This document shows positions 13,571 through 61,891 of a stretch of DNA of 64,000 nt, in pieces. The notes under the pieces were generated by a model that was given only the letters and a program-made list of their open reading frames with translations, did not search any database and was not told the DNA's origin. A program made the position numbers and the translations under genes. The DNA is from Candidatus Omnitrophota bacterium. GTDB lineage: Bacteria > Omnitrophota > Omnitrophia > Omnitrophales > Aquincolibacteriaceae. The DNA is taken from NCBI GenBank assembly GCA_023247035.1, contig JAHFHG010000003.1, forward strand, positions 15,081 through 79,080. Reading direction: 5' to 3'. How positions within the stretch are numbered: position 1 is the first letter of the stretch; each line of letters opens with the position of its first letter.

Positions 13571-14806
13571 ATGAAAAAGCTGCTAAGTTTGGGGATGGTA
13601 CTTTTTTTGTCTTTTTGCGGAACGCTTTCGGCCGGGGAAGAGATCAGCGCTGTAACGCGTGACACCGTGGGAGGTAAAAAAAAGTGGTTTGACGGCGGCG
13701 GCATTGGTTTGGGGCCTGAAAAGCTTTGGCGTATCAGCCCGGGCTTCAAATACTCCACCCTGTATGACTCTAACGTAAACCGTGAGCCGCACACTAAGCA
13801 AGATCATGATATCATCATGCAGTTTATTCCCTCCATTGCCTTAAGCCGGATTGGAAGTAAATTCGGCATCCTTTCAGATTATGAGATGAACTATCAATTA
13901 TTTTTGCGGGATTCGGATCAAACCTCCTTCAATCATCGTTTTAATACCAAAGCCTGGTATGAAAGCGAGCGGCTTAAAGTAAAATTGCATGAAAGTTTCG
14001 GGTGGGTTAAAACTTACGCGACCACGGAACAGACTGAGCGAAGAATAGTCATTTTCAATAAAGTAAATCCTGAGGTCTCCTACCGCGTGACCTCTAAAGT
14101 CAGCGTTTCTTCAATCTATGAAAATTCCATTTTCCACTACAAGGACACCGTGCTGGAAGAAAATAGCTACATCCGAAATGATATCGGTGGGCGCGTTTAC
14201 TACCACGTGACAGACAAGACGGATCTTTTTTTGCAGGGATCCTCGATCTTCACAGATTACTATCAGACCGAGTCGGAGAGTTTTGATTCTCATGGCTACG
14301 GGATTTATGTCGGCGTTATCGGTGAAGTGACGGATAAAACCATTGTGAATCTCAAGACCGGTTTTGAAAGCCGTGATTACGACAACGGCACGATTAATTC
14401 TTTTGACAATTGGGTAGGAGAACTCGGGCTGCGCCACAGCCTTACGGCAAAAAGCGATGTCACCCTAATCGCAAAACGGGGGATCGAGGAATCTATTTAT
14501 CGAAATACGGGTTGGTACGGTTTTAATAAGTTCTCCCTTCATTATGACTACCAAGTCACGCATAACATTGCCGCGCAAATCATCGGCGGGTTTCAACATA
14601 ACGGGTACCCGCGCCAAACGTTCGAAGGCCCGATCCGCCGGAAAAGAAAAGATAAAATTATCACGGCAGAAGCCAAACTGAAATGGGAGCCGATTTCAAA
14701 CGTGATTCTCGCGGGCGGGTATACCTACGGAACACGGATTTGTAATTTTGACGAGTTTGATTACATTGAACATGCCATTGAAGCGTCGACCTCATTGAAG
14801 TTTTAA
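13571..14806 (+). CDS. Putative outer-membrane beta-barrel protein of the polysaccharide export module
   Basis: Signal peptide MKKLLSLGMVLFLSFCGTLSAGEE; alternating amphipathic Y/T/S-rich strands; C-terminal ...STSLKF ends in an aromatic residue; immediately upstream of a Wza-like gene. Confidence 0.5.
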   Translation: MKKLLSLGMVLFLSFCGTLSAGEEISAVTRDTVGGKKKWFDGGGIGLGPEKLWRISPGFKYSTLYDSNVNREPHTKQDHDIIMQFIPSIALSRIGSKFGILSDYEMNYQLFLRDSDQTSFNHRFNTKAWYESERLKVKLHESFGWVKTYATTEQTERRIVIFNKVNPEVSYRVTSKVSVSSIYENSIFHYKDTVLEENSYIRNDIGGRVYYHVTDKTDLFLQGSSIFTDYYQTESESFDSHGYGIYVGVIGEVTDKTIVNLKTGFESRDYDNGTINSFDNWVGELGLRHSLTAKSDVTLIAKRGIEESIYRNTGWYGFNKFSLHYDYQVTHNIAAQIIGGFQHNGYPRQTFEGPIRRKRKDKIITAEAKLKWEPISNVILAGGYTYGTRICNFDEFDYIEHAIEASTSLKF

Positions 14807-15402
14807 TGAGGCTATTTTTTTTATCAGGCGCCTTTTTTTTTGGTCTTGCCGGGCAGTGCCCGGTAATTCCGCATTTGTTTGACCCCATAGCTTTCGCAAA
14901 AGTAGAGCAAGGCAGTTCCTTTCAACTTCATGCGGGTGACCGTTTGGCGATCGCCGTCTACCGCGAAGAAGATCTCTCAGGCGTTTATGAGATTGATCCC
15001 GCCGGAGCCTTGAATTTTCCCCTTGTCGGAGAAATGCGCGTTGCCGGTCTTCGTGTCGATGAATTGCTCGGCCGGCTGAATTGGAATCTGCGAAAGTACC
15101 TCGTCAATCCTCAGGTCAGTGTTTCCCGGGCGGAGACCACGATTAAGTCCATTTCAGTTTTAGGGCAGGTCAAAAACCCCGGAGCTTTTGACTATGCCCC
15201 CGGCCTCACTGTGATGAGGGTTATTTCCCAAGCGGGAGGGTTTGACCGAGCGGCGAATAAGCGGAAAATCCGGGTCGTCAGAATTGTGAGCGGAAAAAAA
15301 GAATCATTCATGATCAACGGTTCGGCGATTATTAACGGGGAAGAAGATGATCCGGCGGTTGAGTCCGGCGACATGATTTTTGTCTCCGAAGCGATTTTTT
15401 AG
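14806..15402 (+). CDS. Polysaccharide export protein (Poly_export + SLBB domains; Wza/GumB-like periplasmic component)
   Basis: LHAGDRLAIAVYREEDLSGVYEIDPAGALNFPLVGEMRVAGL is a Poly_export motif. VLGQVKNPGAFDYAPGLTVMRVISQAGGF is an SLBB domain. Confidence 0.75.
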   Translation: MRLFFLSGAFFFGLAGQCPVIPHLFDPIAFAKVEQGSSFQLHAGDRLAIAVYREEDLSGVYEIDPAGALNFPLVGEMRVAGLRVDELLGRLNWNLRKYLVNPQVSVSRAETTIKSISVLGQVKNPGAFDYAPGLTVMRVISQAGGFDRAANKRKIRVVRIVSGKKESFMINGSAIINGEEDDPAVESGDMIFVSEAIF

Positions 15403-17226
15403 ATGATCATTCCAACGAATCCAAATCCAAATTTAAATCCTTATCAGCCTCAGCCCAAAAACGAAGACGTTGACTGGGAAGCAGCGCTGCAGGGCCTTTA
15501 CAGCCGGCGCTGGTTAATCCTCACGGTGACGGTCCTCGCGGGTTGTTTGGCGGCGCTTTTTACAGCGGTCATGCCGGACGTGTATACGGCCCAAACGAGC
15601 ATCCTCGTCGAGCGTTTCAATGATACGCCTCTCCACTACAAAGAAATCCTTTTTCCCACCGGCGAGCAGGGTCCCGGCTATTATGAAACCAAAGTCGCAT
15701 TGCTCAAAAGCCGGCCCATTCTGGAGCAGACCATCAAACAGCTCAATCTTCTGGAGCATTACCGGAAGGCAGACAAGCGGGTTAAGAATACGCAAGACGT
15801 GGTAAAGATACTGAACAAAAGGGTTCGCGCGAATGTCCTGGGCCGGACGCAAATTATTAGAGTTGAAATCAAAGATACCGACCCGCAGATGGCCGCACGG
15901 ATTGCGAATATCATTTCAGAGAATTTTGTGCGCGAGGCTTGGCGTGAACGCTTTTTTATCTCCGATCAGCTTCTGAAATGGTTCCCGGATGAAGCGGGGA
16001 CCCTGCAGAAGAATGCCCCGATCCAGCAATTGCGAAAACTTGAAACCGATGAAGTCATCACGTCTCTTCCCAGCGTCATGCAAGATTCCGTGCTCAACGG
16101 TATTAAGCAGGACCGAATGAAAGTGGATGCGGAAATCCGCGAGCTTTCCAGGCGCTATACGAAAGAACATCCGAAAATGAAAGAGCTGCGCGCCCGAGCG
16201 GATTATCTCAAAAGTGAACTTAAAGGGCAGATCGAAAGAATTGTCGGAGGCCTTAAGGCGGGACTTGCGGGCCAATTCAGCGTGAACAACATTAAGATTG
16301 TCGAAACCGCGACTCCGCCGTCGAAGCCTTCCGGTCCGAAGCGCTTGTTGATGGTCTTGGGTTGCACGTTGGTCGCTTTTGCCTTTAGCGCTTGGCTTGC
16401 CATTTTTCTTGAGTATCTCAACCGCCATATCCGCACGGAAGAGGACGTGAAGCGCCTTGGCGTGTCCTTTTTGGGCTATATGCCGCTGATCACGGATCTT
16501 GATCCAACCCGGAACGCCAAAAGCCTCATGGACATCATGGATTCGGATATAAGGCTTAATGACGACGTGATAAACATACGGACTTCGCTTCTTTTTTCTA
16601 TGCCTGCCGAGCAAGGAAAGCTGCTTTTGTGCACAAGCGCGATTCCAGGTGAGGGGAAATCAACGATCGTTGCGATGCTGGGACTATCCCTGGCGGAGTC
16701 AGGGTCCCGGGTGCTTCTTATCGATGCCGATATGCGCAATCCCACCCTCCACAAAATCTTCAACCTCGACAATGAGGAAGGATTGAGCGGCTGTCTTGCG
16801 GGCGCTGTGAAGGCTCGCGAAGCGGTTCATATCTTGGAGAAAAATACCTTGCTGCATGTGATGCCTGCGGGTCAAAAACCGCCTAATCCCGCGGTCTTAA
16901 TTGGGTCTTCAGCCCTGGGCCAGCTTATCAGTGAGCTGGCCGGCGAGTATGACAAAATTATTTTTGACGTTCCTCCGGCTCTCCACATTGCAGATGCGTT
17001 GATATTGGCGCAAAGAATGCATGGGGCGATTTTGGTTTTTGAGGAGGGTAAAATCCATCAGACCATCGCCAAAAAACTCATTGAAAAAGTAAGCGCAGCG
17101 CACGGCATTTTGATTGGAACCGTAGTGAACCGGGCGAAGTTCCAAAAACTGGATTACCGAGCCTACCATTATTATCATCAGTATCAAAAAAAATATTATC
17201 ACGACACGGTCGGCAAGCCCGACTGA
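15403..17226 (+). CDS. Wzc/GumC-like polysaccharide co-polymerase (Wzz domain) fused to a BY-type tyrosine kinase
   Basis: N-terminal TM plus Wzz-like coiled-coil periplasmic region and a second TM. C-terminal P-loop SAIPGEGKSTIVAMLGLSLAESGSRVLLIDADMRNP, Walker B IIFDVPP, and a C-terminal Tyr cluster YRAYHYYHQYQKKYYHD. Confidence 0.85.
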   Translation: MIIPTNPNPNLNPYQPQPKNEDVDWEAALQGLYSRRWLILTVTVLAGCLAALFTAVMPDVYTAQTSILVERFNDTPLHYKEILFPTGEQGPGYYETKVALLKSRPILEQTIKQLNLLEHYRKADKRVKNTQDVVKILNKRVRANVLGRTQIIRVEIKDTDPQMAARIANIISENFVREAWRERFFISDQLLKWFPDEAGTLQKNAPIQQLRKLETDEVITSLPSVMQDSVLNGIKQDRMKVDAEIRELSRRYTKEHPKMKELRARADYLKSELKGQIERIVGGLKAGLAGQFSVNNIKIVETATPPSKPSGPKRLLMVLGCTLVAFAFSAWLAIFLEYLNRHIRTEEDVKRLGVSFLGYMPLITDLDPTRNAKSLMDIMDSDIRLNDDVINIRTSLLFSMPAEQGKLLLCTSAIPGEGKSTIVAMLGLSLAESGSRVLLIDADMRNPTLHKIFNLDNEEGLSGCLAGAVKAREAVHILEKNTLLHVMPAGQKPPNPAVLIGSSALGQLISELAGEYDKIIFDVPPALHIADALILAQRMHGAILVFEEGKIHQTIAKKLIEKVSAAHGILIGTVVNRAKFQKLDYRAYHYYHQYQKKYYHDTVGKPD

Positions 17227-17285: not shown

Positions 17286-19289
17286 ATGGGTGTAACCAGC
17301 CAAAGAGAAGTGCGTGATTCACGGATTTCAGAAATTATCAATGCGGCTTCCCGGTGGATTGTTCCCGCCATTCTTTTTTATTCGACTCTTTCCGCGGGTG
17401 AGCCCCGCGCGTTGACGCTTTTTTCGACGCGGTTTTTGACTTTTTTTGGTTTTTTCCTCCATCTGCCTTCATTGTTTTCGAAGAAAAATGATTTCACCAG
17501 TTTTCCTTCCGCCCTTCTTGCGCCGGTTCTTCTCTTTTCCGTTTTTCTTTTGCTGGGAGTTTTCCAGATTTTTTCAGGCTTAAATATCTTCCACATTCAA
17601 GTCGGCAGCGTAAACCCCTATGCCACCCATTCTTCCCTTGCCCAATTGGCAAGCTATTTTGTTTTTTTCGCCCTCTGTATCCGATTCGTCTCACGCCCGG
17701 AAAACCTCGAGAAACTCCTTTTTCTTCTCGCCCTTCTTGTCTCCGGGGTCACGATATGGGGGATTGCGGAACGGTTTTTGGGGCGCCAGTTTTTTGGAAC
17801 CGACAATCCTTTGCAGGACAGCTTTGGCCCTTTTGTGAACCCGAATCATTACAGCGCGTTCATCGGGCTTTCGCTGCCCCTCTTTTGGAACGCCTTGCTA
17901 AACCGCCTGATCCCGCATGAGGCGTCTTTATCAAACCGCCCGGCAGGAGGGCAGCCGCTTTTATTTTGGAAAAAGATATTAAACTTTTTGGATTCTGGTA
18001 TCCTGTTCCTGCTTTTTCTTATCGCACTAGCCGTGGCAGGCTGTTTTTTATCGGGCTCTAGGCTGGGAGCTTTGCTCATCGTGTTTTCCCTCTTCTTTCA
18101 AGGAATAGTATTTAGCCTCAACCACCGGAGCGTCTTAAAAGCGTTCGGTTTGGCTGCAGGCGTCATCTCCGCCGCCGCGATTCTAGTGATACTGCCGGCG
18201 GGATTGGGAGCGGTCTTCCGGACCTTTGGCTGGGATTCATTAGTGGCGGCGTGGACGGAACGTCTTCAGGTTTCCGGCGACTCGCTGGGGATTTTTTTTC
18301 AGTACCCGCTCTTGGGCGCCGGGTTAGGAACTTATGGTTTTATATCGTCCAAATGGGTTGTCCTGAGTGATTCGGTCACGTGGGTTCACGCCCACAATGA
18401 TTATGTTGAGCTGCTCGCGGAAACCGGCCTTGCCGGTTCCCTTCTTCTGCTTACGGCCTTTGGAGCTCTGATTTTCGTCAGTCTGCGGGATTTTTCGAAT
18501 CATTCGCTGCATTCCCGCTCGATCCGGATCCAGGCGCTTTTTGCCGTCTTCAACATCGCCGTTATGGAACTGGCTGATTTCCCCTTGAAGGTGCCGGCGG
18601 TTGCGCTTCTTTTTTCCGCGCAGCTCGCTCTTTTGACTTGGCGCATTGCCAGGACCGATGATCTAAGGAGTTTAAGACGATCCGCTCAATACAGCCTGGG
18701 CGCAATTTTTTTGGTCGCCGCTATTTTTTTTATGGATTGGACCGTGAAGGATTATCAAGCCGCTCGGCTTGCCCAAAGCGTGACGGACCGGATTCAAAAT
18801 CTGGAAAAAGCGGTCCAGATTCAGCCGTCGAACGCAGAATACTGGTATCAACTGGGTTTGGAATATCTTAAAGCCAAGCCGGACGCGCCGGGCCGGGATT
18901 CCAAGGCAAGGGCGGTTGAGGCCTTTCGAAACGCCGTTCATTTAAGCCCGACCTATCCGCGTTACTGGTTTTCTTTGGGAGGCGTTGAGTATCACGCCGG
19001 GCTCCGGAAACAAGGTCTGGAGTCTCTTGAACAGGCGGCGGACTGGGCGCCTCATAAATCCGGATATTTACTGCATCTTATCGCCCTTTATTTAAAGGCA
19101 AGCGAAGAATCCTCCACAGCAGAAGAAAAAAATTTAAATTTGAATAAGGCCAAGGAACTTTCGAAGCGCTTGAACAGGATGAAGACGTTTCCCGGTGAGC
19201 AGGATCAAAGGCATTGGATGGGCGATGCCTATGAAAAGTTCGCCGGCTGCGCGCTTGAGTGGAATCTCAACCGGAAGGCCGGTCCATGA
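17286..19289 (+). CDS. O-antigen ligase/polymerase-family (Wzy_C) polytopic membrane protein with C-terminal TPR repeats
   Basis: About 11 predicted TM helices. The Wzy_C signature [22 protein letters not shown] is present. The C-terminal soluble part has TPR-like repeats ([12 protein letters not shown]..., [16 protein letters not shown]). Confidence 0.7.
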
Positions 19290-20911
19290 GTCCAGCCGCC
19301 GTTTCCGGATCAAGAAAGATCCCGCGGGTTGCAGTCGTTGGCTGCGGGGATTGGGGCCGGAACCTGATCCGGAACTTTCACGATCTGAAGGCCCTCGCCG
19401 CCTTGTGCGATACGGATGAAAAAAAGATTCACGATTTGAAAAAACTGTATCCGGAAGCCGAATTTTTTTCTTCCTATGCCGCAGTTCTCGCAGATCCTTC
19501 TCTCGAAGCGGTGGCCATTGCCACGCCGGCTGAATGGCACGGAACCTTGGTGAAACAGGCACTGCTTGCCGGAAAAGATGTCTTGGTCGAAAAGCCCTTG
19601 TGTTTATCCCTAGCCGAAGGCGAGGAAATCCTGGCGGCGGCAAAAGGGAGAATCCTTATGGTGGGCCATCTTCTCTGGTATCATCCCGCCGTTCTTGAGC
19701 TCAAAAAACTGGTCGACGAAGGCGCTCTCGGCCGCATTCAATATATCTATTCGAACCGGCTTAACCTGGGCAAGATCCGCCGGGAGGAAAATATCCTTTG
19801 GTCCTTCGCCCCGCACGACATCTCCGTGATCCTCGGCCTGCTCGGCGAAATGCCGCAAAGCGTCCAGGCCCAGGGCGGCAATTATCTGCGCCAGCAAATC
19901 GCCGATGTCACCGTCAGCCTCTTATCTTTTTCAAGCGGAGTCAAGGCGCATATTTTTGTCTCCTGGCTTCATCCTTTCAAGGAGCAAAAATTAATTGTGG
20001 TCGGCGATAAAAAAATGGCGGTGTTTGATGATTTGGAAACCGAAAGGAAGCTTGTCCTTTATCCTCACTCGATTCATTGGAAAAACCAATTCCCGGTGGC
20101 GAATAAGGCCGAGGGTTCTGCTGTCGCCGTCACTCCCGTTGAGCCGCTTTATGCCGAATGCCTTCATTTCCTCCAAAGTGTCCAAACCCGGATTCCGCCC
20201 CGAACCGACGGACGGGAAGGCTTGCGCGTTTTGAAAGTGCTTCAAGAATGCCAGAAGGCGCTTGAGTCCCATTTTCCAATACAATCTCAAGGAGTTTCTT
20301 TACCCGCAAGTTCCCGGAAATATTTCGTCCATGAGTCTGCTTTTATAGATGAGGGAGTGGAAATCGGCGAGGGCACTTCCATCTGGCACGTTTCTCATAT
20401 TCTCAAAGGCTCACGGATCGGGAAAAATTGCAGGATCGGCCAAAACGTGGTGATCGGCCCGAATGCCTGGGTGGGAGAGGGCGTCAAAATTCAAAACAAT
20501 GTGTCGGTTTATGAAGGCGTGACGTTGGAAGACTTTGTTTTTTGCGGGCCTTCGGTGGTCTTTACCAATGTCAATACCCCACGGAGTGAATATTCAAGAA
20601 AAAAAGATGAGTTCCGATCCACCCTTGTGAAACGAGGGGCAACTTTGGGCGCGAATTGCACCCTCCTTTGCGGCCTTACGATCGGAAGGTATGCCTTTGT
20701 CGGCGCCGGCGCGGTCGTCACGAAAGATGTTCCGGATCATGCGCTTGTGGTCGGCAATCCGGCCCGTATCGCGGGTTGGGCGTGTGAATGCGGCCTCAAG
20801 CTTGCGAATCCGGAAAGCAACGGTTATTCGTGCGAGTGCGGCAAGAATTATCGAAAAGATGAAGCCGGAAGGATCCTTTTACAGGACAACGTTGTAGAAA
20901 GCTTGTCATGA
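19286..20911 (+). CDS. Bifunctional Gfo/Idh/MocA oxidoreductase (WbpB-like) fused to a left-handed beta-helix N-acetyltransferase (WbpD-like)
   Basis: N-terminal Rossmann [17 protein letters not shown]...EKP. The C-terminal half has hexapeptide repeats [13 protein letters not shown] / [35 protein letters not shown]. Start taken at ATG 19286 overlapping the previous stop (ATGA). Confidence 0.8.
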
Positions 20912-53654: not shown

Positions 53655-54468
53655 CCTTCAAGGCCTTCGGGTCGCTTTTCTGATGAGCGTCTACCGGGAG
53701 GAGCGCCCTGAATTCCTCCGGCAATCCCTTGAAAGTATGTGCCGGCAAACCTACGGCAATCTGGACATCCATATTTTTGAGGACGGAAATCTGGGGGAGG
53801 AGCTTTCGCAAGTTTTGTTTTTTTATGGGGGCCGGCATTCGAATTTATTTTTTCACCGGCACGCAGAAAATCGCGGGCTGGCGGTATGCCTCAATGAATT
53901 GATCGAAAAATTGAAAGACAGCTACGATTATTTTGCCAGAATGGACTCCGATGACGTTTCTTTCCCTGACCGGGTGCAGAAACAGGTGGAGTTCCTGGAA
54001 GCTCATCCCGAGATCGATGTGGTCGGCGGCTCGATTTTGGACATCGATGAATCCGGCCGGTATCTTAAAGAGGTCCGTTATCCCGAAGACCATCAAACAA
54101 TCGTGAAATTTTTTCAAAAACGAAACCCGATGGCCCACGCGGCCGTGATGTACCGCAGAAGCTATTTCGAAAAGGCGGGGCTTTATCCTCCGGTCCGGCT
54201 GGAGGACGGGTTGTACTGGATGCAGGGCATCATGGCAGGGTGCCGGTTCCACAATATCCCGGATTTCCTTTTGGGCGTCCGGCGCACCGAGGATTTTCTC
54301 AAGCGAAGATCTGGATTGAAGAAAGCCTGGGATGAGTTTAAAATCAAGCTCACCATTAACCGCCGACTGGGGTTTGGGGCAGTCGCTTATCTTTACTCCG
54401 TAGCGATTTTTCTCATGCAGCTCTTGCCCATTCCGATTAAAAAAATTTTGTATGAAAAATTACGATAA
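53611..54468 (+). CDS. Glycosyltransferase family 2
   Basis: VAFLMSVYREERPEFLRQSLESMCRQTY, DSDD (DxD), ...AHAAVMYRRS. Confidence 0.7.
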   Translation: MRTLSNLKPPSQRPSLQGLRVAFLMSVYREERPEFLRQSLESMCRQTYGNLDIHIFEDGNLGEELSQVLFFYGGRHSNLFFHRHAENRGLAVCLNELIEKLKDSYDYFARMDSDDVSFPDRVQKQVEFLEAHPEIDVVGGSILDIDESGRYLKEVRYPEDHQTIVKFFQKRNPMAHAAVMYRRSYFEKAGLYPPVRLEDGLYWMQGIMAGCRFHNIPDFLLGVRRTEDFLKRRSGLKKAWDEFKIKLTINRRLGFGAVAYLYSVAIFLMQLLPIPIKKILYEKLR

Positions 54469-55177
54469 AATACGCAACGCGAGCGCGCGGGACGGGCGAC
54501 TGTCCGGCTATTTCGTGCTCAAGCGGTCGCTTGATGTCCTGTTTTCTTTGTTTGCGGTGATTCTCTTGGCGCCGCTTTTTTTCGGGATTGCGGCGTGGAT
54601 CAAGAGGGAGTCGCACGGCCCCGTATTTTTCTCCGGCTTGCGCATCGGAAAAAACGGCCGGCCGTTTCGAATGCTGAAGTTTCGGACCATGATTGCGGAT
54701 GCGGATAAAATCGGCGGCTCTTCAACCCCTGGAGATGACCCGCGCCTTACCCGGGTCGGAAAATTTCTAAGACGGTACAAACTCGACGAACTGCCGCAAT
54801 TTTTGAACGTTCTCCGGGGGGAGATGAGTTTTGTGGGGCCGCGGCCTCAAGTGGAGTGGGCGGTCAAGCTTTACACGGAGGAGGAAAAGGCCGTGATGGG
54901 CGTTTCCCCAGGCATTACAGACTTCGCCTCCATCCGGTTTCGGAACGAAGCGGAAATCCTCCGCGGCAGCAGGAATCCGGATCAAGATTACCTTGAAAAA
55001 ATCGCGCCCGAAAAAATGCGCCTCGCCTTGGAATATGTCAGGAAACAATCTTTGGGAGTGGATTTAAAAATCATTTTAGCGACTGCAGGCACGTTGCTCG
55101 GGCTGCCGCCGGATTGGATTTTTAGAGGCTCCGAGGCGGGCAAAAAAGAACTTATCCCCGAAAATCAAACATCTTAG
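54452..55177 (+). CDS. Small bacterial sugar transferase (PglC/WbaP-C-terminal-like undecaprenyl-phosphate phosphoglycosyltransferase; initiating enzyme)
   Basis: Single N-terminal TM; hallmark KFRTM...DELPQFLNVLRGEMSFVGPRP. Confidence 0.85.
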   Translation: MKNYDKIRNASARDGRLSGYFVLKRSLDVLFSLFAVILLAPLFFGIAAWIKRESHGPVFFSGLRIGKNGRPFRMLKFRTMIADADKIGGSSTPGDDPRLTRVGKFLRRYKLDELPQFLNVLRGEMSFVGPRPQVEWAVKLYTEEEKAVMGVSPGITDFASIRFRNEAEILRGSRNPDQDYLEKIAPEKMRLALEYVRKQSLGVDLKIILATAGTLLGLPPDWIFRGSEAGKKELIPENQTS

Positions 55178-55192
55178 TGAAGGGGAAACGCT

Positions 55193-55993
55193 TTGGTCAA
55201 ACCGCAAGAATTAAAAAAAGGAAATTCCCGGACTCAAAGAGACGGAGTGAAGTCCTTTAAAACGGAAGCCGAACGCCAAGTTGGAAAAAATATCGAGCGC
55301 ATCTTTACCGAAAGTTCCGACAGCGTCGAGATCAAGCTCCGGAATTTTCCCAAATATGTGGGAAGGCAGCACCTCAAACGTTTCTTGGCCTTCTATGAAA
55401 TTTTTAAACGTGTCCTGCCCGTGAAAGGATCCGTTGTCGAGTGCGGCGTTTTTCGGGGATTTGGATTGATGTCCTGGGCCAAGCTGAGCACGATACTGGA
55501 GCCTGAAAATTTGACCCGCCGCATTTACGGCTTCGATACTTTTGAAGGGTTCCCTTCGATCCATCCCAAGGACCAAAGCGGCTACCAAAAGAGCGGAAGC
55601 GGGGACTTCGCAACGCAGAGTTACGACGAACTGCTCCAGCTCATCGGCGAGTATGACAACGACCGGTTTTTGGGATATTTTGAAAAAGTAAAATTGATTC
55701 GCGGCGACATGACCAAGACGATCCCGGATTTTATAAAAGATAATCGGCATTTGATTGTCAGTTTATTGTTTCTGGATTGCGATCTCTATGAACCCACTCG
55801 AGCCGCCCTCCAGCATTTCCTGCCTCGAATGCCGCGGGGAGCCGTTCTGGCGTTTGATGAGCTGGATAATCCGATTTGGCCCGGTGAGACGACGGCGCTT
55901 TTGGAAAATTTTGGAATTCGCAACCTTAAACTCGAGCGTCTGGAATGGGACCCTTATATCAGCTACGCTGTGCTGGACCGGAAAAATCGATGA
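55193..55993 (+). CDS. TylF/MycF-family (macrocin-O-methyltransferase-like) SAM-dependent sugar O-methyltransferase
   Basis: VVECGVFRGFGLMSWA, LFLDCDLYEPTRAAL, GAVLAFDE - a TylF-family pattern. Confidence 0.65.
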   Translation: MVKPQELKKGNSRTQRDGVKSFKTEAERQVGKNIERIFTESSDSVEIKLRNFPKYVGRQHLKRFLAFYEIFKRVLPVKGSVVECGVFRGFGLMSWAKLSTILEPENLTRRIYGFDTFEGFPSIHPKDQSGYQKSGSGDFATQSYDELLQLIGEYDNDRFLGYFEKVKLIRGDMTKTIPDFIKDNRHLIVSLLFLDCDLYEPTRAALQHFLPRMPRGAVLAFDELDNPIWPGETTALLENFGIRNLKLERLEWDPYISYAVLDRKNR

Positions 55994-56838
55994 ATCCTGC
56001 AAGCGGAAAAGTTCTTCGCAAACAAAAACTGTATCCCTCGCTCGCCAAAAGGATCCGGCAGAATGTGCTGCAGATGACGCACGACGCCCGGAGTTCCCAT
56101 GTCGGCACTTCGCTTTCAATGGCCGATCTCCTGGCGGTCCTTTACGGCGGCATTTTACGCGTGCGGCCCGAGGAGCCGGATTGGCCCGCGCGCGACCGGT
56201 TCATTCTCAGCAAGGGGCACGGCTGCGCCGGCCTGTACGCGGCGCTGGCCGAGAGGGGATTTTTTCCCCGGGCCTGGCTCGAGAATTTTTATCAAAATGG
56301 CTCGCGCCTTGCCGGACATGCGACTCACCACGGCGTCCCGGGAGTTGAGGTTTCGACCGGATCTTTGGGGCACGGTTTGCCGATGGCCTGCGGAATGGCG
56401 GTGGCCGGCAAGCGGGGCGGTGAAGATTACCGTGTTTTTGCGCTCTTGAGCGACGGCGAGTGTGACGAAGGTTCGGTTTGGGAAGCGGCCTTGTTCGCCT
56501 CGCACCATAAACTCGACCATTTGACTGTGATTGTGGATTACAACAAAATCCAAAGCCTCGGAGCAGTGAAAGATATTCTGTCCCTAGATCCTTTCATCGC
56601 CAAATGGGAGGCCTTCGGCTGGAGCGCGCGCGAGATTGACGGCCACGATACGGACAAAATCGAAAAGGCCTTTAAAGAAATGCCTTTCAAAGAAGGGAAG
56701 CCGAGCTGTTTGATCGCCCACACTTTGAAAGGCAAGGGAGTCGGCTTCATGGAAAATGCGCTTCTTTGGCATTACCGTTCGCCTGACGTTGAAGAGTTGA
56801 GGCGCGCCTTGAAAGAATTGGACGGGGGCGAAGAATGA
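55990..56838 (+). CDS. Transketolase N-terminal (ThDP/PP-binding) subunit, split form
   Basis: HVGTSLSMADLLAVLY...DRFILSKGH...GSLGHGL...LLSDGECDEGSVWEA; ATGA overlap with the upstream stop (ORF-track start 55945). Confidence 0.8.
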   Translation: MNPASGKVLRKQKLYPSLAKRIRQNVLQMTHDARSSHVGTSLSMADLLAVLYGGILRVRPEEPDWPARDRFILSKGHGCAGLYAALAERGFFPRAWLENFYQNGSRLAGHATHHGVPGVEVSTGSLGHGLPMACGMAVAGKRGGEDYRVFALLSDGECDEGSVWEAALFASHHKLDHLTVIVDYNKIQSLGAVKDILSLDPFIAKWEAFGWSAREIDGHDTDKIEKAFKEMPFKEGKPSCLIAHTLKGKGVGFMENALLWHYRSPDVEELRRALKELDGGEE

Positions 56839-57767
56839 GGACCGCTTTTTTCCGTACGCTCCTGGATTTAGCGGCGCAGGATGAGCGGATCCACCTTGTC
56901 GTCGCTGATATCGGTTTCGGCGCGGTCGAGCCCTTTGCAGAAAGGTATCCCGACCGCTTTCTTAATGTGGGAGTGGCGGAACAGAATATGATCGGGATCT
57001 CCGCGGGCCTGGCATTAAGCGGCAAGGTTGTCTTTGCTTATTCGATCAGTAATTTCCCAACGCTGCGCTGCCTGGAACAAATCCGCAACGACGTTTGTTA
57101 TCATAATGCAAGCGTCAAAGTTGTGGCGGTCGGCGGAGGATTCACCTACGGCGCTTTGGGGATGTCTCACCACGTTACGGAAGACATCGCCATTTTGAGA
57201 GCGCTTCCCAATATGACGGTCGTGGCCCCCGGAGATCCGGTGGAAACGGAATACGCAACCCGCGCCCTGGCCGCTTATCAAGGCCCTTGCTATTTGCGGC
57301 TGGGAAGGGCAGGAGAGCCGGTCATTCATAAACAAGGAATTGATTTTCAATTGGGGAAGGCGATTGAGGTTCGTCCCGGAAGTGACCTGACTTTGATTTC
57401 GACGGGCGGCCTCTTGGAAATCGCGGTTCAAGCCGCGGAGGCCTTGGAGGCTTGCGGGGCGCAAGTGCGCGTGCTCAGTATGCCTACGGTAAAGCCTTTG
57501 GATCAGGAAGCCGTGCTTGCCGCCGCCCGGGAAACGCCTGCGATCGCGACGCTGGAAGAGCACAGCGTGCTCGGAGGGCTCGGAGGAGCGGTCGCTGAAG
57601 TCCTGGCTGAATCCCTAGCAGAAAAGGTTCTTTTTAAAAGGTTAGGCCTGCCTTCGGTTTTTTCCTCCCACATTGGCGATCAGAATTATTTACGCGCAGC
57701 TTACGGTCTTTCGAAAAGCGGCATTGTGGAATCTTTGAAATCCCTTTTAGACCTCGTGCGAAAATGA
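56835..57767 (+). CDS. Transketolase C-terminal (Pyr + C-terminal domain) subunit, split form
   Basis: GVAEQNMIGISAGLALSGK...YSISNF...GPSH (here GMSHH)...TLEEHSVLGGLG. Confidence 0.8.
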   Translation: MRTAFFRTLLDLAAQDERIHLVVADIGFGAVEPFAERYPDRFLNVGVAEQNMIGISAGLALSGKVVFAYSISNFPTLRCLEQIRNDVCYHNASVKVVAVGGGFTYGALGMSHHVTEDIAILRALPNMTVVAPGDPVETEYATRALAAYQGPCYLRLGRAGEPVIHKQGIDFQLGKAIEVRPGSDLTLISTGGLLEIAVQAAEALEACGAQVRVLSMPTVKPLDQEAVLAAARETPAIATLEEHSVLGGLGGAVAEVLAESLAEKVLFKRLGLPSVFSSHIGDQNYLRAAYGLSKSGIVESLKSLLDLVRK

Positions 57768-58906
57768 CGGCTCTCCTTCCTTTGAAAACCCAGCCGGGCT
57801 GGAAAGTCCGCTTCGTGGATTATCCCCGGCAATTCCGGAAAATGGAAACCGAAATCATGGAGACAATCCATTCGGTCCTCTCGCAGGGCGATCTCATCCT
57901 CCGCCGGCAATTGCTGGATTTCGAAAGCGGTTTCGCGGAATTCGTCGGGACGCGTTTTGCCGTCGGATTGAGCAATTGCACGGACGCGATTCATCTGTCT
58001 CTCCGGGCCGCAGGCATCAAAGCCGGGGACGAGGTGATTACGGTTTCGCATACTTTTGTCGCCACGGCTGCCGCAATCCATCATGCGGGAGCTGTCCCGG
58101 TGCTTGTCGATATCGGCGACGACCACAATATGGATGTCCGTCTTTTGGAGAAGGCGATCACGCCAAAGACGCGCGCGATTGTGCCCGTCCATTTAAACGG
58201 CCGGCTTTGCGATATGGACCCGCTCATGACGGTTGCGGAAAAGCACGGTTTGATTGTGATCGAAGATTCGGCGCAGGCGCTGGGGGCTTCTTATCGAGAC
58301 AAACGCGGCGGATCATTCGGCGCTGCGGGATGCTTCAGTTTTTATCCCGCCAAACTGCTCGGCGCTTTTGGAGACGCCGGCGCCCTGACGACCCATAGTG
58401 AAGAAATCGCGGAAAAAGTGCGCTCGCTCCGGGATCACGGGCGAAACAAGGCAGGAGATATCGACGGCTGGTCTTTTAATTGCCGGATGGACAATCTCCA
58501 GGCCGCGCTGCTGAATCTCAAATTGGCGCGGCTTTCGGAATGTATTGCGCGAAGGCGGGAAATCGCCCGGCTGTATCACGAGCGCTTATCGTCCGTTACC
58601 GAGCTGCGTTTGCCTCCGCCTCCGGGAGCGAGCGGAATTTATTACGACGTATTTCAAAACTACGAGATCGAGGCTCCACAAAGAGACAAACTGGTTTCTT
58701 TTTTGAAAGAAAAAGGAATTGAGATCCTTATTCCCTGGGGCGGCAAAGGCGTGCATCAATTCAAGGCTTTGGGGCTTTCGGACTTTGAGCTGCCGCGCAC
58801 GGAGCGCCTTTTTCGAAACGTCCTGATGCTGCCGCTGCACACGGAATTAACCGACGATCAAATCGAATACGTGAGCGATGTTGTCCGCAAATTCTACGGC
58901 TGTTAA
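57764..58906 (+). CDS. DegT/DnrJ/EryC1/StrS-family sugar aminotransferase (third copy)
   Basis: CTDAIHLSL...VITVSHTF...PVHLNGR...DSAQALGA...FSFYPAKLLGAFGDAG. Confidence 0.85.
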   Translation: MTALLPLKTQPGWKVRFVDYPRQFRKMETEIMETIHSVLSQGDLILRRQLLDFESGFAEFVGTRFAVGLSNCTDAIHLSLRAAGIKAGDEVITVSHTFVATAAAIHHAGAVPVLVDIGDDHNMDVRLLEKAITPKTRAIVPVHLNGRLCDMDPLMTVAEKHGLIVIEDSAQALGASYRDKRGGSFGAAGCFSFYPAKLLGAFGDAGALTTHSEEIAEKVRSLRDHGRNKAGDIDGWSFNCRMDNLQAALLNLKLARLSECIARRREIARLYHERLSSVTELRLPPPPGASGIYYDVFQNYEIEAPQRDKLVSFLKEKGIEILIPWGGKGVHQFKALGLSDFELPRTERLFRNVLMLPLHTELTDDQIEYVSDVVRKFYGC

Positions 58907-59705
58907 AAAAGAAAACGGGACCGTGATCAGGCCGGACTTCACCACGGTCACGGAAATGCCCGGCAGCCGGGCCTCCCGCGAACAACTTTCGATGCTTTAT
59001 ACGCGCTATCACTTTGCGGCCTCGTTTTGCGCGGAAAAAGATGTTCTCGAGGCGGCGTGCGGCGCCGGCCCGGGATTAGGCTATCTGGGACGCCGCGCGA
59101 AAAAGGTTATTGGAATCGATATTGATGCACGCAATTTGAGTGTTGCGCAAAGCCACTATCGGGGAAGGCAGAATATTGAGCTGCTTTCTATGGATGCTCA
59201 CACTCTGGAATTTGAGGACGCATCGTTTGATGTCATCATCCTCTTTGAAGCTATTTATTACCTCAACCAGCCCCGGAGGTTTCTGGCGGAATGCCGCCGT
59301 GTTCTAAGAGACGGGGGAACGCTGCTTCTCAATACCGTGAATCCGGAATGGCGCGATTTTAATCCAAGCCCTTTCAGCACGCGTTATTTTGGGGCCCGCG
59401 AATTGCGTGATCTGCTTGAAAGTTCCAATCTTAAGGCGAATCTTTTCGGAGCCTTTCCGGGCTCCGGCTCTTCATTGAGATTTAAAACCATTTCATTTCT
59501 CAAACGGACCGCCGGAAATCTGGGGCTTATTCCAAAAACAATGAAGGACAAGGAATCCTTGAAACGCATTTTTTTCGGAAGGCTGGAGCCGTTTCCGTCC
59601 GAGGTCCGGGAGGCGATGGCTCAATATGCGGCGCCTGTTCCTCTTCCGATCGATGGCCCGGTCCCTCAATATAAAGTTCTTTACGCCGCCGGCAGAAAAA
59701 GATGA
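58878..59705 (+). CDS. Class I SAM-dependent methyltransferase
   Basis: VLEAACGAGPGLGYL (motif I), GIDIDARNL, VIILFEAIYYL, LRDGGTLLL; true start may lie at a downstream Met. Confidence 0.7.
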   Translation: MLSANSTAVKKENGTVIRPDFTTVTEMPGSRASREQLSMLYTRYHFAASFCAEKDVLEAACGAGPGLGYLGRRAKKVIGIDIDARNLSVAQSHYRGRQNIELLSMDAHTLEFEDASFDVIILFEAIYYLNQPRRFLAECRRVLRDGGTLLLNTVNPEWRDFNPSPFSTRYFGARELRDLLESSNLKANLFGAFPGSGSSLRFKTISFLKRTAGNLGLIPKTMKDKESLKRIFFGRLEPFPSEVREAMAQYAAPVPLPIDGPVPQYKVLYAAGRKR

Positions 59706-59971
59706 AGGCTTCAAATAGAAAAATCGCGGGGCTTGATCTTGATAGAAGGAGGAAATTCTTTTATAAGCAATGTCTCGTATGCTACTATAAAGGCTGAAAA
59801 AATAGATTGAATGTCCGGACGGTTGGAATATTCCTTCATCGAGGCATCCCTGCGTATCGGGTGGATTTCCAAGCAGAAGGAAGGCTCGATTGAGCGGTTC
59901 CGTAAGTAAAAAGAAACCTTTTAATAAAAAAATCGATCGCCGAAGCTGTCACCTATCGGAAACATTTAAGT

Positions 59972-61891
59972 TTGCTAAACACCTCATCGTTTCGCCAGTG
60001 CATCCCATTTTTGCGTAAAGCCGCTCTGCTTCTTTGCGACGCCGCGTTGGTGAACGCCTCTTTTTTTCTTGCCTTTCTCATCCGTTTTGACCAGACCCCT
60101 GAATTTTTCACCGTGATGGGAATCTACCAACACCTGATTCTGCCCATAACCGTCATCCGTTTGGCGCTCTTCTACGCGTTTGGGTTGTACGAGTGGTCCT
60201 TTCGATACGCCAGCTTAAGCGAAGCCATCCAGTTACTGAGCGCCGTCTGCGCGAGTTCCTTGATGATCTTTGCCTGTATTGCCTTTTTCTTTTTTCAGCA
60301 GTACCGGACGATGATCGGACGTTCCGTGCTGCTTATTGATTTTCTCATTTGTCTTTTCCTTTTGGCCGCTTCCAGGTTCTCCGTCCGGGGCCTTATAAAG
60401 TTCCAGCAAAAATTTAGAAACTATTTTCAAAAATTAGACCTTAACCGGACTTTAATCATCGGAGTCGGCGACGCCGGAGAGCTCTTGCTTCGAGAGTTTC
60501 AAAAACATTCCTATTTGAAGTACTGGCCGGTCGGTTTTTTGGACAATGACCGTGAAAAACGAGGGATGCGGATTCACGGCGTCAAGGTATTGGGCGCGCT
60601 TTCTGATCTGCCGCGGGTGGCCGTGAAAAAACATATCCGCACCGTGATTATCGTCCTTCCCCGAATTTCCCGGGATCAGATCCAGGAAATCATCCGGACT
60701 TGCCAGCAGCTTCAACTGGCCTGCCGCATTTTGCCTCCCGCTTCTCTTTTATGGTCAAGCCAGATTTTTCCTTTAAAGCTGAGGGATGTCGACGCCTCGG
60801 ACCTGTTGGGACGTGAAATCATTCAAACGGACCCGGCCCGGATGCAGGACTTTTTTAGAAACAAAAAAGTTTTGATCACGGGCGGCGGAGGATCCATCGG
60901 CTCCGAAATTGCAAAGATTCTCTCCCGGACTCAACCCCAGGAATTGATCCTTGTGGATCACGCGGAAAATAATCTTTACGAGATCCAAAATTATTTTCAA
61001 GAAAATCCTACGGAAACCGTCGTCAATTATTATCTTTGCGACGTGAAAAACCGGGAGGATATGGAAAAGATTTTTGACGCGCATCGCCCTCACATTGTTT
61101 ATCACGGAGCTGCCCACAAACACGTTCCGTTAGGCGAACAGTTCTACAAAGAGGGGATTTTGAATAATGTGCTCGGGACTAAAGTGACCGCCGATCTAGC
61201 CTGTGCGTATGGAGCCCGGACCTTTGTCCTGATCTCCACGGATAAAGCGATCCGGCCTGCCAGTATTATGGGATCTACAAAAAGAATCGCGGAACTTTAT
61301 ATTCAAAGTTTGAAGGACAGGGGGACGGATTTTCTCTCCGTTCGTTTTGGAAATGTCCTCAACAGCCGGGGCAGCGTGGTGCCGCTCTTTCAAAAGCAGC
61401 TGCAGGAAGGCTCTCCCGTCACCGTGACGGACGCCAACGTCACGCGCTATTTTATGGACCTTTGCGAGGCCGTCTTTTTAATCATGGAAGCGACCCGGCT
61501 GGGCTCGGATTCGGAAATCTTCGTCCTTGATATGGGAAAACCCATCAAAATTGTGAACCTGGCCCGCTCCCTTGCCCAGCTTATGGGAATCGCGGAAGAC
61601 CAAATGACGTTGAAGTATATCGGGCTACGCCCGGGAGAAAAACTGGAAGAAGAAATTGAACTCAACTCCGAAACTGCGATCCCGACCCAGCACCGGAAGA
61701 TCAAAATCTGGAAATCCTCCCGGCAGCCCGCACCTGAGGATCTAGCGAGAGCCATCGAAGAACTCTTTGATCTTGTCCAACAAGGCGCCCCGAAAAACGC
61801 GGTCATCCAAAAGCTCAGCGAGATTGTCCCGGAGTACAGGCCTGTTTCCAAGGATTTTGCAGGCCCGCAAGTTCTCAACGCCCCCCATTAA
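59972..61891 (+). CDS. Membrane-anchored nucleotide-sugar 4,6-dehydratase (WbpM/PglF/CapD family, Polysacc_synt_2)
   Basis: Four N-terminal TM helices, a CoA-binding-like linker (LIIGVGDAGELL), then VLITGGGGSIGSEIAKIL...YHGAAHKHVPL...STDKA. Confidence 0.85.
   Translation: MLNTSSFRQCIPFLRKAALLLCDAALVNASFFLAFLIRFDQTPEFFTVMGIYQHLILPITVIRLALFYAFGLYEWSFRYASLSEAIQLLSAVCASSLMIFACIAFFFFQQYRTMIGRSVLLIDFLICLFLLAASRFSVRGLIKFQQKFRNYFQKLDLNRTLIIGVGDAGELLLREFQKHSYLKYWPVGFLDNDREKRGMRIHGVKVLGALSDLPRVAVKKHIRTVIIVLPRISRDQIQEIIRTCQQLQLACRILPPASLLWSSQIFPLKLRDVDASDLLGREIIQTDPARMQDFFRNKKVLITGGGGSIGSEIAKILSRTQPQELILVDHAENNLYEIQNYFQENPTETVVNYYLCDVKNREDMEKIFDAHRPHIVYHGAAHKHVPLGEQFYKEGILNNVLGTKVTADLACAYGARTFVLISTDKAIRPASIMGSTKRIAELYIQSLKDRGTDFLSVRFGNVLNSRGSVVPLFQKQLQEGSPVTVTDANVTRYFMDLCEAVFLIMEATRLGSDSEIFVLDMGKPIKIVNLARSLAQLMGIAEDQMTLKYIGLRPGEKLEEEIELNSETAIPTQHRKIKIWKSSRQPAPEDLARAIEELFDLVQQGAPKNAVIQKLSEIVPEYRPVSKDFAGPQVLNAPH

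Follow-up and report, generated by a model that had tools for sequence, protein, structure and literature searches.

Does an unbroken run of 43 genes on one strand of a genome from an uncultured bacterium encode the synthesis of a single glycan, or of several glycans that merely share a neighborhood? This question is raised by a DNA stretch of 64,000 nucleotides (the window, to which all positions below refer) from the Candidatus Omnitrophota assembly GCA_023247035.1 (contig JAHFHG010000003.1, positions 15,081 to 79,080, forward strand), in which about 48 kb, from 13058 or 13571 to 61891, hold a locus for glycan assembly and export. To judge from its gene content, the region is probably one Wzx/Wzy-dependent locus with which an uncultured diderm bacterium makes a surface heteropolysaccharide. 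As a whole it is another large polysaccharide cluster of this ordinary kind, with a value for annotation and not surprising in itself. The most interesting part of the locus is a cassette around a split transketolase-like enzyme, which occurs across phyla. A preliminary description of the same DNA had presented the region as a supercluster for a hypermodified repeat unit, and the outcome of its claims is given together with the evidence.

The gene array and its assembly

The gene inventory rests on Pfam and NCBIfam domain searches of the window proteins, and start codons were refined with the help of public gene calls, made on contigs that match the window at 99.7-100 % identity. According to the six-frame list of open reading frames (ORFs) and to these public calls, all 43 consecutive genes lie on the + strand, a co-directional succession that is far beyond chance, and any - strand ORF that reaches 100 amino acids inside the same limits is nested within a longer + strand ORF. 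Genes overlap at 23 of the 42 junctions (13 of them by four nucleotides, of the ATGA or GTGA type) and five more junctions have a gap of 0-3 nt, so that 28 of 42 are either overlaps or gaps of at most 3 nt. The sole apparent gap of 213 nt is filled by a gene for an acyl carrier protein (ACP) of 83 amino acids (31833-32084, + strand). The widest gap, of 344 nt, precedes the last gene, whose start at 60050 is that of the public call; the gap would be 266 nt if the alternative TTG at 59972 were the start. The preliminary description had placed all genes from 13571 onwards on the + strand, mostly with overlapping junctions, and this held. Nearly the whole of its inventory was also confirmed by the Pfam and NCBIfam profile annotation that it had itself called for, including two GT4 and three GT2 glycosyltransferases, three DegT aminotransferases, three GFO/IDH/MocA proteins, and two extended short-chain dehydrogenases/reductases (SDRs). 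Its six methyltransferases correspond to five class-I methyltransferases and one B12-binding radical S-adenosylmethionine (SAM) enzyme. Absent from its list were a pair of SGNH/AlgX-like proteins (32081 and 33464), the membrane protein 34636, the Wzy candidate 24588, and the proteins 26813 and 27977 (genes are designated here by their first position).

Scans for promoters and terminators gave counts not convincingly above those of shuffled sequences, with about +2 standard deviations at 12-32 kb and 14 against 7.9 ± 2.6 in the shuffles (+2.3 standard deviations) at 52-64 kb. The terminator scan of the locus yielded no clear terminator in any intergenic gap, no RfaH ops element was found in the leader of the locus, and an Rfam search of the window returned two tRNAs only.

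If several loci had been joined by an assembly artefact, the colinearity of these 48 kb would be without meaning. Such an event would fit the GC content, which ranges from 0.42 to 0.56 along the region, and the contigs of another sample, which break near 44.1 kb and 49.5 kb, but contigs from three sources (ENA ERZ27276474, ENA ERZ27280021, and Logan SRR14366783) together cover the window from position 1 to about 63206 at 99.7-100 % identity. By BLAST, independent contigs were placed at 1-9830, 15947-36768, 22335-27007, and 44051-54126; in addition, the parent contig of locus L097 spans, by its stated length, 9690-44191, and L099 spans about 49496-63206 (placed from identical products and coordinates). 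Independent contigs bridge the 49.5-kb break and both borders of the internal module described below, at 25.9 kb and 49.7 kb. The breaks themselves come from one independent assembly, whose contigs end at 44051-44191 and 49496-49621 with k-mer-sized overlaps, which suggests strain-level variation or graph branching on both sides of a block of three genes (the second DegT, a metallo-beta-lactamase (MBL) fold protein, and the radical SAM enzyme). The 44.1-kb break falls within an intact GFO/IDH/MocA ORF, and the sole internal DNA repeat of the cluster is a diverged GT4 pair. Because independent contigs match the window at such identity and bridge the module borders, an assembly chimera of several loci, which the preliminary description had held up as one finding that would overturn it, is rejected, and we regard an artefact as extremely improbable.

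Export machinery, conserved backbone and variable insert

The families of the assembly and export proteins are shown by domain matches, and the mechanism proposed for them draws on general knowledge of these families. The unit possibly begins with 13058..13531, which encodes a small secreted protein of 157 amino acids with an N-terminal signal or transmembrane segment (hydrophobic at residues 7-37) and no family match, and ends 39 nt upstream of a gene for an outer-membrane beta-barrel (13571..14806). The barrel, of 411 amino acids, belongs to the BBP2_2 family (PF10082, 59.9 bits, cutoff 23.7) and resembles EpsL and TIGR03016, both NCBIfam matches being under cutoff. It is followed by an outer-membrane polysaccharide export (OPX) protein of 198 amino acids (14806..15402; Poly_export 66 bits, SLBB 46 bits), whose two domains, D1 and D2, span residues 35-193 and leave no room for the C-terminal outer-membrane helix domain of Wza. 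The Wza-like exporter of the preliminary description was thus replaced by a short periplasmic protein, and the exporter is, by its domain composition, of the composite short-OPX/beta-barrel translocon type rather than a true Wza. The next gene (15403..17226) encodes a PCP-2a polysaccharide co-polymerase (PCP) and bacterial tyrosine (BY) autokinase with Wzz, GNVR, and AAA_31 domains (TIGR01007 143.8, cutoff 108), two transmembrane segments on either side of a periplasmic region, and seven tyrosines in the last 25 residues; a genome-collection scan with this Wzc-like protein found only relatives of at most 35 % identity. An exopolysaccharide (EPS) locus of the PEP-CTERM/exosortase kind was also considered and rejected: no exosortase is present in any window protein, and the EpsL, pepcterm_export, pepcterm_TyrKin, and ChnLen models score far under cutoff.

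Two unrelated membrane proteins are candidates for polymerization. The first (17286..19289) combines Wzy_C (51.2, cutoff 31.7) and TPR_11 (37.3) matches with eight hydrophobic segments, and its domains would suit a polymerase as well as a ligase of the WaaL type or an O-oligosaccharyltransferase of the PglL type; the Wzy_C domain (PF04932) is common to ligases and O-oligosaccharyltransferases. The second (24588..25910, 440 amino acids, at least six transmembrane segments), for which Pfam and NCBIfam searches found no family, overlaps the gene of the Wzx flippase (23120..24619; Polysacc_synt 38.2, cutoff 28.2; ten transmembrane segments). At the other end of the locus lie a tandem pair of GT4 genes (49811..51226, Glycos_transf_1 107.7 bits, and 51213..52607, assigned by Pfam with its start from public calls), 57 % identical in amino acids and sharing a 251-nt stretch at 72 % DNA identity, two GT2 genes (52611..53654 and 53611..54468; Glycos_transf_2 94.6 and 67.3 bits), and a small PglC-type polyprenyl-phosphate glycosylphosphotransferase of 241 amino acids with one transmembrane segment (54452..55177; Bac_transf 194.3 bits, cutoff 27). 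A third GT2 (39252..40025; Glycos_transf_2 77.5 bits) has PgfS, dolichyl-phosphate hexose transferase, PpgS, and ArnC as its best NCBIfam matches, all under cutoff, and is nearest to polyprenyl-phosphate sugar synthases.

With these proteins, the small phosphoglycosyltransferase would prime undecaprenyl phosphate, four to five glycosyltransferases would build the repeat unit, Wzx would flip it, a Wzy-like protein (24588 and/or the Wzy_C-TPR protein) would polymerize or ligate it, and the tyrosine autokinase, the short OPX protein, and the beta-barrel would export the polymer. Since there are five glycosyltransferases, the repeat unit is capped at about six sugars. Wzx, the priming transferase, and the PCP/OPX set are each present once only and, because they are dispersed over the whole 48 kb, the locus behaves as one pathway.

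The organization of this pathway becomes apparent by comparison with a related locus (L093/L008) on a 461-kb metagenome contig of the Joint Genome Institute (JGI), whose proteins are 33-74 % identical to those of the window. Its gene order begins with a 2-epimerase (59 %), Wzx (33 %), and a homologue of 24588 (57 %), likewise directly after Wzx. It continues with a Metallophos gene without counterpart in the window, and then with GT4 (50 %), GT2 (49 %), GT2 (60 %), the priming transferase (64 %), a TylF methyltransferase (70 %), the N (74 %) and C (70 %) subunits of the transketolase-like enzyme, DegT (70.5 %), a methyltransferase (58.5 %), and the WbpM-type dehydratase (53 %). Genes for MBOAT, AlgX-like, asparagine-synthase-like, TylF, and MBL family (70 %) proteins and a GT4 are found downstream. 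No counterpart of window positions 25947-49734 is present in the related locus. This insert of about 24 kb contains 22 tailoring genes and has a GC content at third codon positions (GC3) of about 0.42-0.56, against 0.53-0.65 in the backbone. Because the relative keeps the backbone without 25947-49734, the supercluster of the preliminary description, a real contiguous locus for glycan assembly, is not monolithic: it consists of a conserved backbone (13.5-25.9 kb and 49.8-61.9 kb) and, between its two parts, a variable tailoring insert (25.9-49.7 kb). The swapping of tailoring inserts in a conserved backbone is the usual way in which such loci diversify. The present locus offers a clean case of this, with a swap-in module of 24 kb, and shows where glycan diversity in environmental lineages comes from.

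This mosaic of backbone and insert would also suit a different explanation, namely, that two or more glycan pathways merely lie on one strand. The polymer pathway might be accompanied by ligation to lipid A-core or by general protein O-glycosylation, with the Wzy_C-TPR protein as WaaL- or PglL-type enzyme, and/or by a periplasmic side-branch system in which the GT2 39252 makes an undecaprenyl-phosphate sugar for the polytopic protein 34636. The presence of two unrelated Wzy-type candidates (17286 and 24588), the sharing of the Wzy_C domain with ligases and oligosaccharyltransferases, a Pgl-like priming set (small phosphoglycosyltransferase, WbpM/PglF-like dehydratase, and DegT), and the polyprenyl-phosphate sugar synthases matched by 39252 all point in this direction. 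On the contrary, neither the flippase nor the priming transferase nor the PCP/OPX set has a second copy in the region, the relative keeps at least the homologue of 24588 in the same backbone, no GtrA-like flippase was seen, and the assignments on which several pathways would depend are sub-cutoff or family-level matches. Separate pathways, whether as ligation, O-glycosylation or a side-branch system, are in our opinion unlikely.

The reading of the region as one heteropolysaccharide locus has several points against it, which keep it at the level of a probable one. The two Wzy-type candidates, together with a possible undecaprenyl-phosphate sugar synthase and its polytopic protein, make a second acceptor possible; promoter and terminator scans cannot demonstrate a single transcript; and, in the other sample, only a contig overlap of 141 nt spans the junction at about 44.1 kb. 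Among the enzymes described below, no DegT protein resembles PglE and no GFO domain resembles WbpB or WlbA, and the closest relatives of the 6-dehydrogenase are UDP-ManNAc dehydrogenases. Most enzyme matches are under the NCBIfam equivalog cutoffs, so that substrate assignments are generic. The preliminary description was right in its glycan locus, but both its one "hypermodified" repeat unit and the exceptional complexity of its "unusually complex" polysaccharide are expectations rather than demonstrated properties.

The transketolase-like cassette

The right-hand part of the backbone ends in six genes that follow the priming transferase. They encode a TylF-family methyltransferase (55193..55993; PF05711 48 bits, cutoff 23; 70-75 % identical in the related loci L093 and L094), a transketolase-like N subunit (TK-N) that binds thiamine diphosphate (ThDP) (55990..56838; Transketolase_N 152.8 bits), a transketolase-like C subunit (TK-C) with a divergent substrate site (56835..57767; assigned by Pfam, nearest PDB entry the split transketolase 6yaj), the third DegT aminotransferase (DegT3, 57764..58906; PF01041 339.6 bits; 70-72 % identical in L093 and L094), a class-I SAM methyltransferase (58878..59705; Methyltransf_11 84.6 bits; 57-59 % identical in the same two loci), and a membrane-anchored WbpM/PglF-type UDP-HexNAc 4,6-dehydratase (60050..61891; Polysacc_synt_2 334.5 and CoA_binding_3 60.6 bits; four transmembrane segments).

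This order (small Bac_transf, TylF in some, TK-N, TK-C, DegT, Methyltransf_11 in some, and WbpM-type dehydratase) was compared with four look-ups of TK-N homologues, which are 66-76 % identical in alignment: the JGI relative, a Nitrospirae metagenome-assembled genome (MAG), a contig with a protein labelled Acidiferrales by NCBI, and an Omnitrophica MAG. The transketolase pair lies between the priming transferase and DegT in five of the five contexts, the window included, and four of them also hold the WbpM-type gene; the stretch of L094 that was examined is without it, and that contig ends about 0.1 kb past a second Bac_transf gene located after the methyltransferase. Besides the window, the cassette was found in MAGs labelled as Omnitrophota, Nitrospirota, and Acidobacteriota.

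Is the split transketolase an ordinary enzyme of the pentose-phosphate pathway, either a passenger or a supplier of sedoheptulose-7-phosphate or other precursors? A family that is 65-77 % identical across phyla, as is common for housekeeping enzymes, would fit this role, and the N subunit keeps the ThDP motif SDGECDEGS...N and the conserved His-containing motifs SSHVG and SKGHG that characterize the N-terminal domains of transketolases. A heptose-type set (SIS, GHMP kinase, nucleotidyltransferase, HAD, and transaldolase), moreover, lies near the cassette in the Nitrospirae locus L094. The alignment of TK-C with 6yaj and human transketolase tells otherwise: DADLSKST is changed to GDLGFG, and THAGLTVGEDG to VGGGFxYGxLG, in every cassette member examined and in the more distant L018. 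The replaced motifs carry the equivalents of Ser345, His416, and Asp424 of human transketolase, residues that contact the phosphate and the C2 hydroxyl of the substrate. Because the canonical substrate-binding motifs of TK-C are replaced, a specialized substrate is favored over the ordinary role. The constant position of the pair between the priming transferase and DegT, usually with the WbpM-type gene, the lack of heptose genes in the window, and the fact that plasmid-encoded split transketolases, retrieved by a plasmid search with TK-C, are at most 45 % identical also argue against a pentose-phosphate enzyme, an explanation that we find decidedly improbable.

Two observations on the relatives can be added. 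The C subunits of the window, L093, L094, L095, L101, L102, and L018 form a clade with GDLGFG and GGGFxYGxLGxSHH, encoded in a glycan locus with an adjacent DegT in every case examined. The set in L094 (GCA_016201865.1, 3247-6784), with genes for a GHMP kinase, a nucleotidyltransferase, an SIS isomerase, a HAD phosphatase, and a transaldolase, is the only hint of a link to sedoheptulose supply.

What would the cassette make? A pair of the bacillosamine type is present, namely, the single-transmembrane PglC-type transferase of 241 amino acids and the PglF/WbpM 4,6-dehydratase. In the comparison with PDB, 3-aminotransferases are the nearest entries for all three DegT proteins of the window, which leaves the locus without an assignable 4-aminotransferase; for DegT3, the entries 1o61 and 4ztc, which we take to be those of PglE, score only about 1e-33. 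The PglE-type 4-amination of the priming sugar is accordingly unproven. No acetyltransferase of the PglD type was found in the cassette in any of the five contexts. In the pathway that we propose, the WbpM-type dehydratase would make UDP-4-keto-6-deoxy-HexNAc, which would then be modified by the split ThDP enzyme, DegT3, and the TylF and Methyltransf_11 methyltransferases to give the priming sugar (sugar 4). As a tentative suggestion, which we hold with well less than even confidence, the transketolase pair would be no pentose-phosphate enzyme and the cassette would be a widespread and undescribed route to the reducing-end (priming) sugar, in which the ThDP enzyme acts on UDP-4-keto-6-deoxy-HexNAc or an amino derivative of it and adds a two-carbon hydroxyacetyl branch or, in a phosphoketolase-like manner, an acyl group, replacing the PglD-type acetyltransferase. 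Literature searches for a split transketolase in O-antigen clusters, or for a transketolase with bacillosamine, found nothing relevant.

Tailoring enzymes, flanking DNA and known systems

Additional tailoring enzymes are encoded in the left-hand backbone and in the insert, and three further sugars may be predicted from them. In the backbone, 19286..20911 encodes a GFO/IDH/MocA sugar 3-dehydrogenase fused to an N-acetyltransferase with a left-handed beta-helix (LbH), both seen with Pfam and PDB. The LbH half (residues 357-527) matches WlbB (PDB 3mqg) with an E-value of 3.7e-60 and is clearly, by sequence, a WlbB/WbpD-like acetyltransferase; the GFO half has 3c1a and GnnA (7bvj) as nearest PDB entries and no WlbA/WbpB chain at E <= 1e-8. 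The same fusion was found in L095, at 56 % identity. It is followed by the first DegT (20908..22053; PF01041 396 bits), nearest in PDB to 7b0d, DesV, QdtB, and WbpE, the last with an E-value of 3e-78 and the other three with higher scores, and by a non-hydrolysing UDP-GlcNAc 2-epimerase of the WecB/WbpI family (22050..23123, public-call start; TIGR00236 (wecB) 316, cutoff 210). The fourth relevant enzyme, a nucleotide-sugar 6-dehydrogenase (36964..38193; TIGR03026 266, cutoff 189.8), belongs to the insert and is nearest in PDB to the UDP-ManNAc dehydrogenases 4r16 and Cap5O. These four proteins would make sugar 1, a 2,3-diacetamido-2,3-dideoxy-hexose or hexuronic acid, and a di-acetamido sugar is likely from such a gene set. 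The di-amino uronic acids announced by the preliminary description thus have partial support, from the WlbB/WbpD-like acetyltransferase; the 3-dehydrogenases are unlike WbpB and WlbA, and the 6-dehydrogenase stands closest to enzymes for UDP-ManNAc.

Sugar 2 would be a second 3-amino sugar, made by the third GFO/IDH/MocA protein and the second DegT (45586..46704; PF01041 409 bits). The former (43416..44489), a sugar 3-dehydrogenase-like protein, is 38 % identical to the GFO half of 19286 and scores 146.5 bits, under cutoff, with the model of archaeal UDP-GlcNAc 3-dehydrogenases. Between both genes, a weakly assigned ATP-grasp-like ligase (44486..45589; PRK12767 models with E 2e-14, under cutoff; PylC-like_N with E 0.035) may contribute an amide-forming step. 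Sugar 3, a 6-deoxy C-methyl sugar, would be made by a 4,6-dehydratase-like extended SDR (40028..41032; Epimerase 168.6 bits, with LegB and RmlB as best models, under cutoff), an NDP-hexose C-methyltransferase of TylC3-type architecture (41029..42291; Methyltransf_13, Methyltransf_23, and Methyltransf_14), and an extended SDR of the epimerase/reductase type (42388..43395; Epimerase 137.5 bits).

Other genes of the insert encode two class-I SAM methyltransferases (25947..26768, the first insert gene, with Methyltransf_25/11; and 36205..36963, Methyltransf_11 75.7 bits), a second GFO/IDH/MocA oxidoreductase (38195..39262) with Pfam domains and generic NCBIfam matches only, and the last insert gene, a class B radical SAM enzyme with B12-binding and Radical_SAM domains (48187..49734), which reaches no NCBIfam equivalog at cutoff and is, by its domains, probably a methylase. 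A polytopic membrane protein of 504 amino acids with at least nine hydrophobic segments (34636..36150), for which no family was found in Pfam or NCBIfam, might, as a guess, be a GT-C-type transferase. The MBL-fold protein, of 458 amino acids, carries an HGHPDH motif and an extra C-terminal domain (46695..48071); its predicted fold (AF2, mean predicted local distance difference test (pLDDT) 84.5) finds generic MBL matches only in Foldseek. It belongs to an uncharacterised conserved family of more than 2590 homologues in which about 55 % identity is held across Acidobacteria, Nitrospira, Myxococcaceae, and Binatia; in the related locus L093/L008 the gene has a different position.

The acyl cassette deserves separate attention. 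Its core consists of a FabG-like short-chain reductase (28921..29640; adh_short_C2 137.7 bits, with NCBIfam 3-oxoacyl-ACP reductase models under cutoff), a MaoC-type (R)-hydratase/dehydratase (29640..30077; PF01575 76 bits), an FkbH-domain protein of the HAD-IIIC type (30074..31867; TIGR01686 298.8, cutoff 146.65), and the ACP (31833..32084), whose ORF overlaps the FkbH stop and has a DSWDSL serine motif, the ACP models being under cutoff with a best E-value of 6.6e-10. A look-up of the FkbH ORF by exact sequence had no match, although the identical contig L097 bears a public call of equal length. A metagenome scan with FkbH gave 80 loci, in 76 of which the match covers more than half of the query; among these 76, ACP is present in 22, MaoC in 12, and SDR in 10. 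The MaoC-SDR-FkbH-ACP core thus recurs in unrelated metagenomic loci. No paper that ties FkbH to polysaccharide loci was found by literature search.

Upstream of the core, 26813..27940 encodes a protein without match in Pfam, NCBIfam or PDB by sequence, profile search being also empty, for which AlphaFold (AF2) gives a confident model (pLDDT 93.4). The best Foldseek matches of this model are tandem-GNAT acyltransferases (Eis-like proteins and N-myristoyltransferases). Its family comprises 1084 representative clusters, and the domain occurs elsewhere C-terminal to AMP-binding-FkbM-PP-binding (proteins P0435 and P0468) and behind GNAT/FemAB (P0388 and P0437). From the model and these contexts we infer a carrier-protein-dependent N-acyltransferase, which would move an acyl group from ACP to a sugar amine. 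The adjacent soluble protein (27977..28924) has no match itself in family searches or in a PDB sequence search; it is weakly DUF2334/CE4-deacetylase-like through three homologues (37-40 % identity) that match DUF2334 with E-values of 2e-4 to 1e-3, under cutoff, one of them also with Polysacc_deac_1 (E 0.18, under cutoff). The cassette is followed by two SGNH/AlgX-like genes, a tandem duplication with 49 % amino acid identity; the first product is a putative membrane-anchored acyl-transferase/esterase with an N-terminal transmembrane segment (32081..33394; ALGX 30.7, cutoff 26.5) and the second has a weak GDSL match (33464..34570). In the corresponding mechanism, FkbH would load a glyceryl unit on ACP, the dehydratase and the reductase may convert glyceryl-ACP, e.g., to lactyl- or deoxy-hydroxyacyl-ACP, and 26813 would pass the acyl group to a sugar amine, which the deacetylase-like 27977 may first set free; O-acylation in the periplasm would be the task of the SGNH/AlgX-like pair. 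With this cassette, each of the modifications foreseen by the preliminary description (amination, N-acetylation, methylation, acylation, and possible amidation and C2-branching) has found a candidate enzyme. That the FkbH/ACP cassette is combined with a tandem-GNAT family not annotated before suggests a general route by which sugars are N-acylated from carrier proteins.

The glycan locus begins about 0.9 kb past the right-hand repeat of a degenerate integrative island of about 4.5 kb, which follows the genes for tRNA-Thr (7476-7548) and tRNA-Tyr (7564-7649), the whole occupying 7476-12199. The island is bounded by a perfect direct repeat of 23 nt from the 3' end of tRNA-Tyr (7630-7652 and 12177-12199) and contains a remnant of 84 amino acids of an integrase C-terminus (7732-7986), a SpoVG-like gene, a sigma-70 region-4-like gene, an excisionase-like helix-turn-helix ORF (10603-10809), and an AAA_14/DUF4143 ATPase. 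Further upstream, a UvrD-family helicase of 1043 amino acids with a long N-terminal extension is encoded on the - strand (4219-7350); the public copy has an MJ0043_C domain, and homologues with 54-62 % identity are present in MAGs labelled as many phyla. Two adjacent + strand paralogues (1252-2061 and 2152-4149), 43 % identical, belong to no Pfam family, the longer one bearing an internal repeat of the module that it shares with the shorter one. At the other side, 400 nt past the cluster, a secreted protein of more than 569 amino acids without family match is encoded on the + strand (62293-64000) and runs off the window end.

Among known systems, the locus as a whole resembles those of the Escherichia coli group 1 capsule and of Myxococcus xanthus EPS, in which a priming phosphoglycosyltransferase, Wzx, Wzy-type proteins, and glycosyltransferases are likewise co-directional in one locus with a Wzc-like kinase with a Tyr-rich tail and an OPX protein. 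It differs from them in being far larger (43 genes, about 24 kb of them tailoring), in a primer of the small PglC type instead of WbaP/WcaJ, and in its truncated OPX protein. For the latter, the closest parallel is the composite translocon of a D1D2-OPX protein and a beta-barrel described as EpsY/EpsX in Myxococcus and reported to be widespread (PMC9601211; see also PMC9603273 and PMC12819527). As in this Class-3 OPX system, the gene of the 198-aa protein (Poly_export and SLBB) is directly 3' of that of a barrel of about 410 amino acids; the barrel of the Class-3 system, 16-18-stranded and AlgE-like, binds the OPX protein, and that of the window is a member of the BBP2_2/EpsL-like family.

Regarding the diacetamido sugar, a route of five enzymes leads to 2,3-diacetamido-2,3-dideoxy-mannuronic acid (WbpA/B/E/D/I in Pseudomonas aeruginosa and WlbA-D in Bordetella; PMC10622841). 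All five enzyme classes are found in the window, three of them adjacent and with a WlbB-like acetyltransferase domain. However, the dehydrogenase and the acetyltransferase of the window are fused, its 3-dehydrogenase is nearer to GnnA and to archaeal UDP-GlcNAc 3-dehydrogenases, and its 6-dehydrogenase is nearer to UDP-ManNAc dehydrogenases. Because of this fusion and these affinities, the step order and the final sugar, including its uronic acid form, are uncertain. In the Wbp/Vim pathway of Porphyromonas and Tannerella, the deacetylase VimE and the GNAT-type VimA re-acylate a di-amino uronic acid (PMC7468200), and in the window the GNAT-fold 26813 adjoins the weakly deacetylase-like 27977 within a locus with Wbp-type enzymes. 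The donor in the window would be an ACP-bound acyl group from the FkbH cassette, not an amino acid, and the deacetylase assignment of 27977 is under threshold, so that the parallel of deacetylation followed by re-acylation is weak.

The FkbH cassette has its counterpart in the glyceryl-ACP of polyketide pathways (methoxymalonyl-ACP, tetronates, and lactyl starters), where FkbH similarly precedes a small ACP, next to a dehydratase and a ketoreductase. Neither FkbI/K/G-type enzymes nor polyketide synthases were found among the window proteins by Pfam search and, since the cassette is embedded here in a glycan locus, its acyl group is presumably a sugar substituent. Finally, a role of transketolases in hydroxyacetyl branching is so far no more than a proposal, made for miharamycin and amipurimycin, and the branching enzymes known from lipopolysaccharide (LPS) are YerE-like (PMC12247030). 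The ThDP enzyme of the window shares with sugar-branching enzymes its location beside a 4,6-dehydratase that would provide the keto-sugar acceptor. In contrast to the YerE/decarboxylase type of LPS, it belongs to the transketolase superfamily, is split in two subunits, and has a C subunit with a substrate site that diverges from that of canonical transketolases; if it does tailor a nucleotide sugar, this would represent new carbohydrate chemistry.

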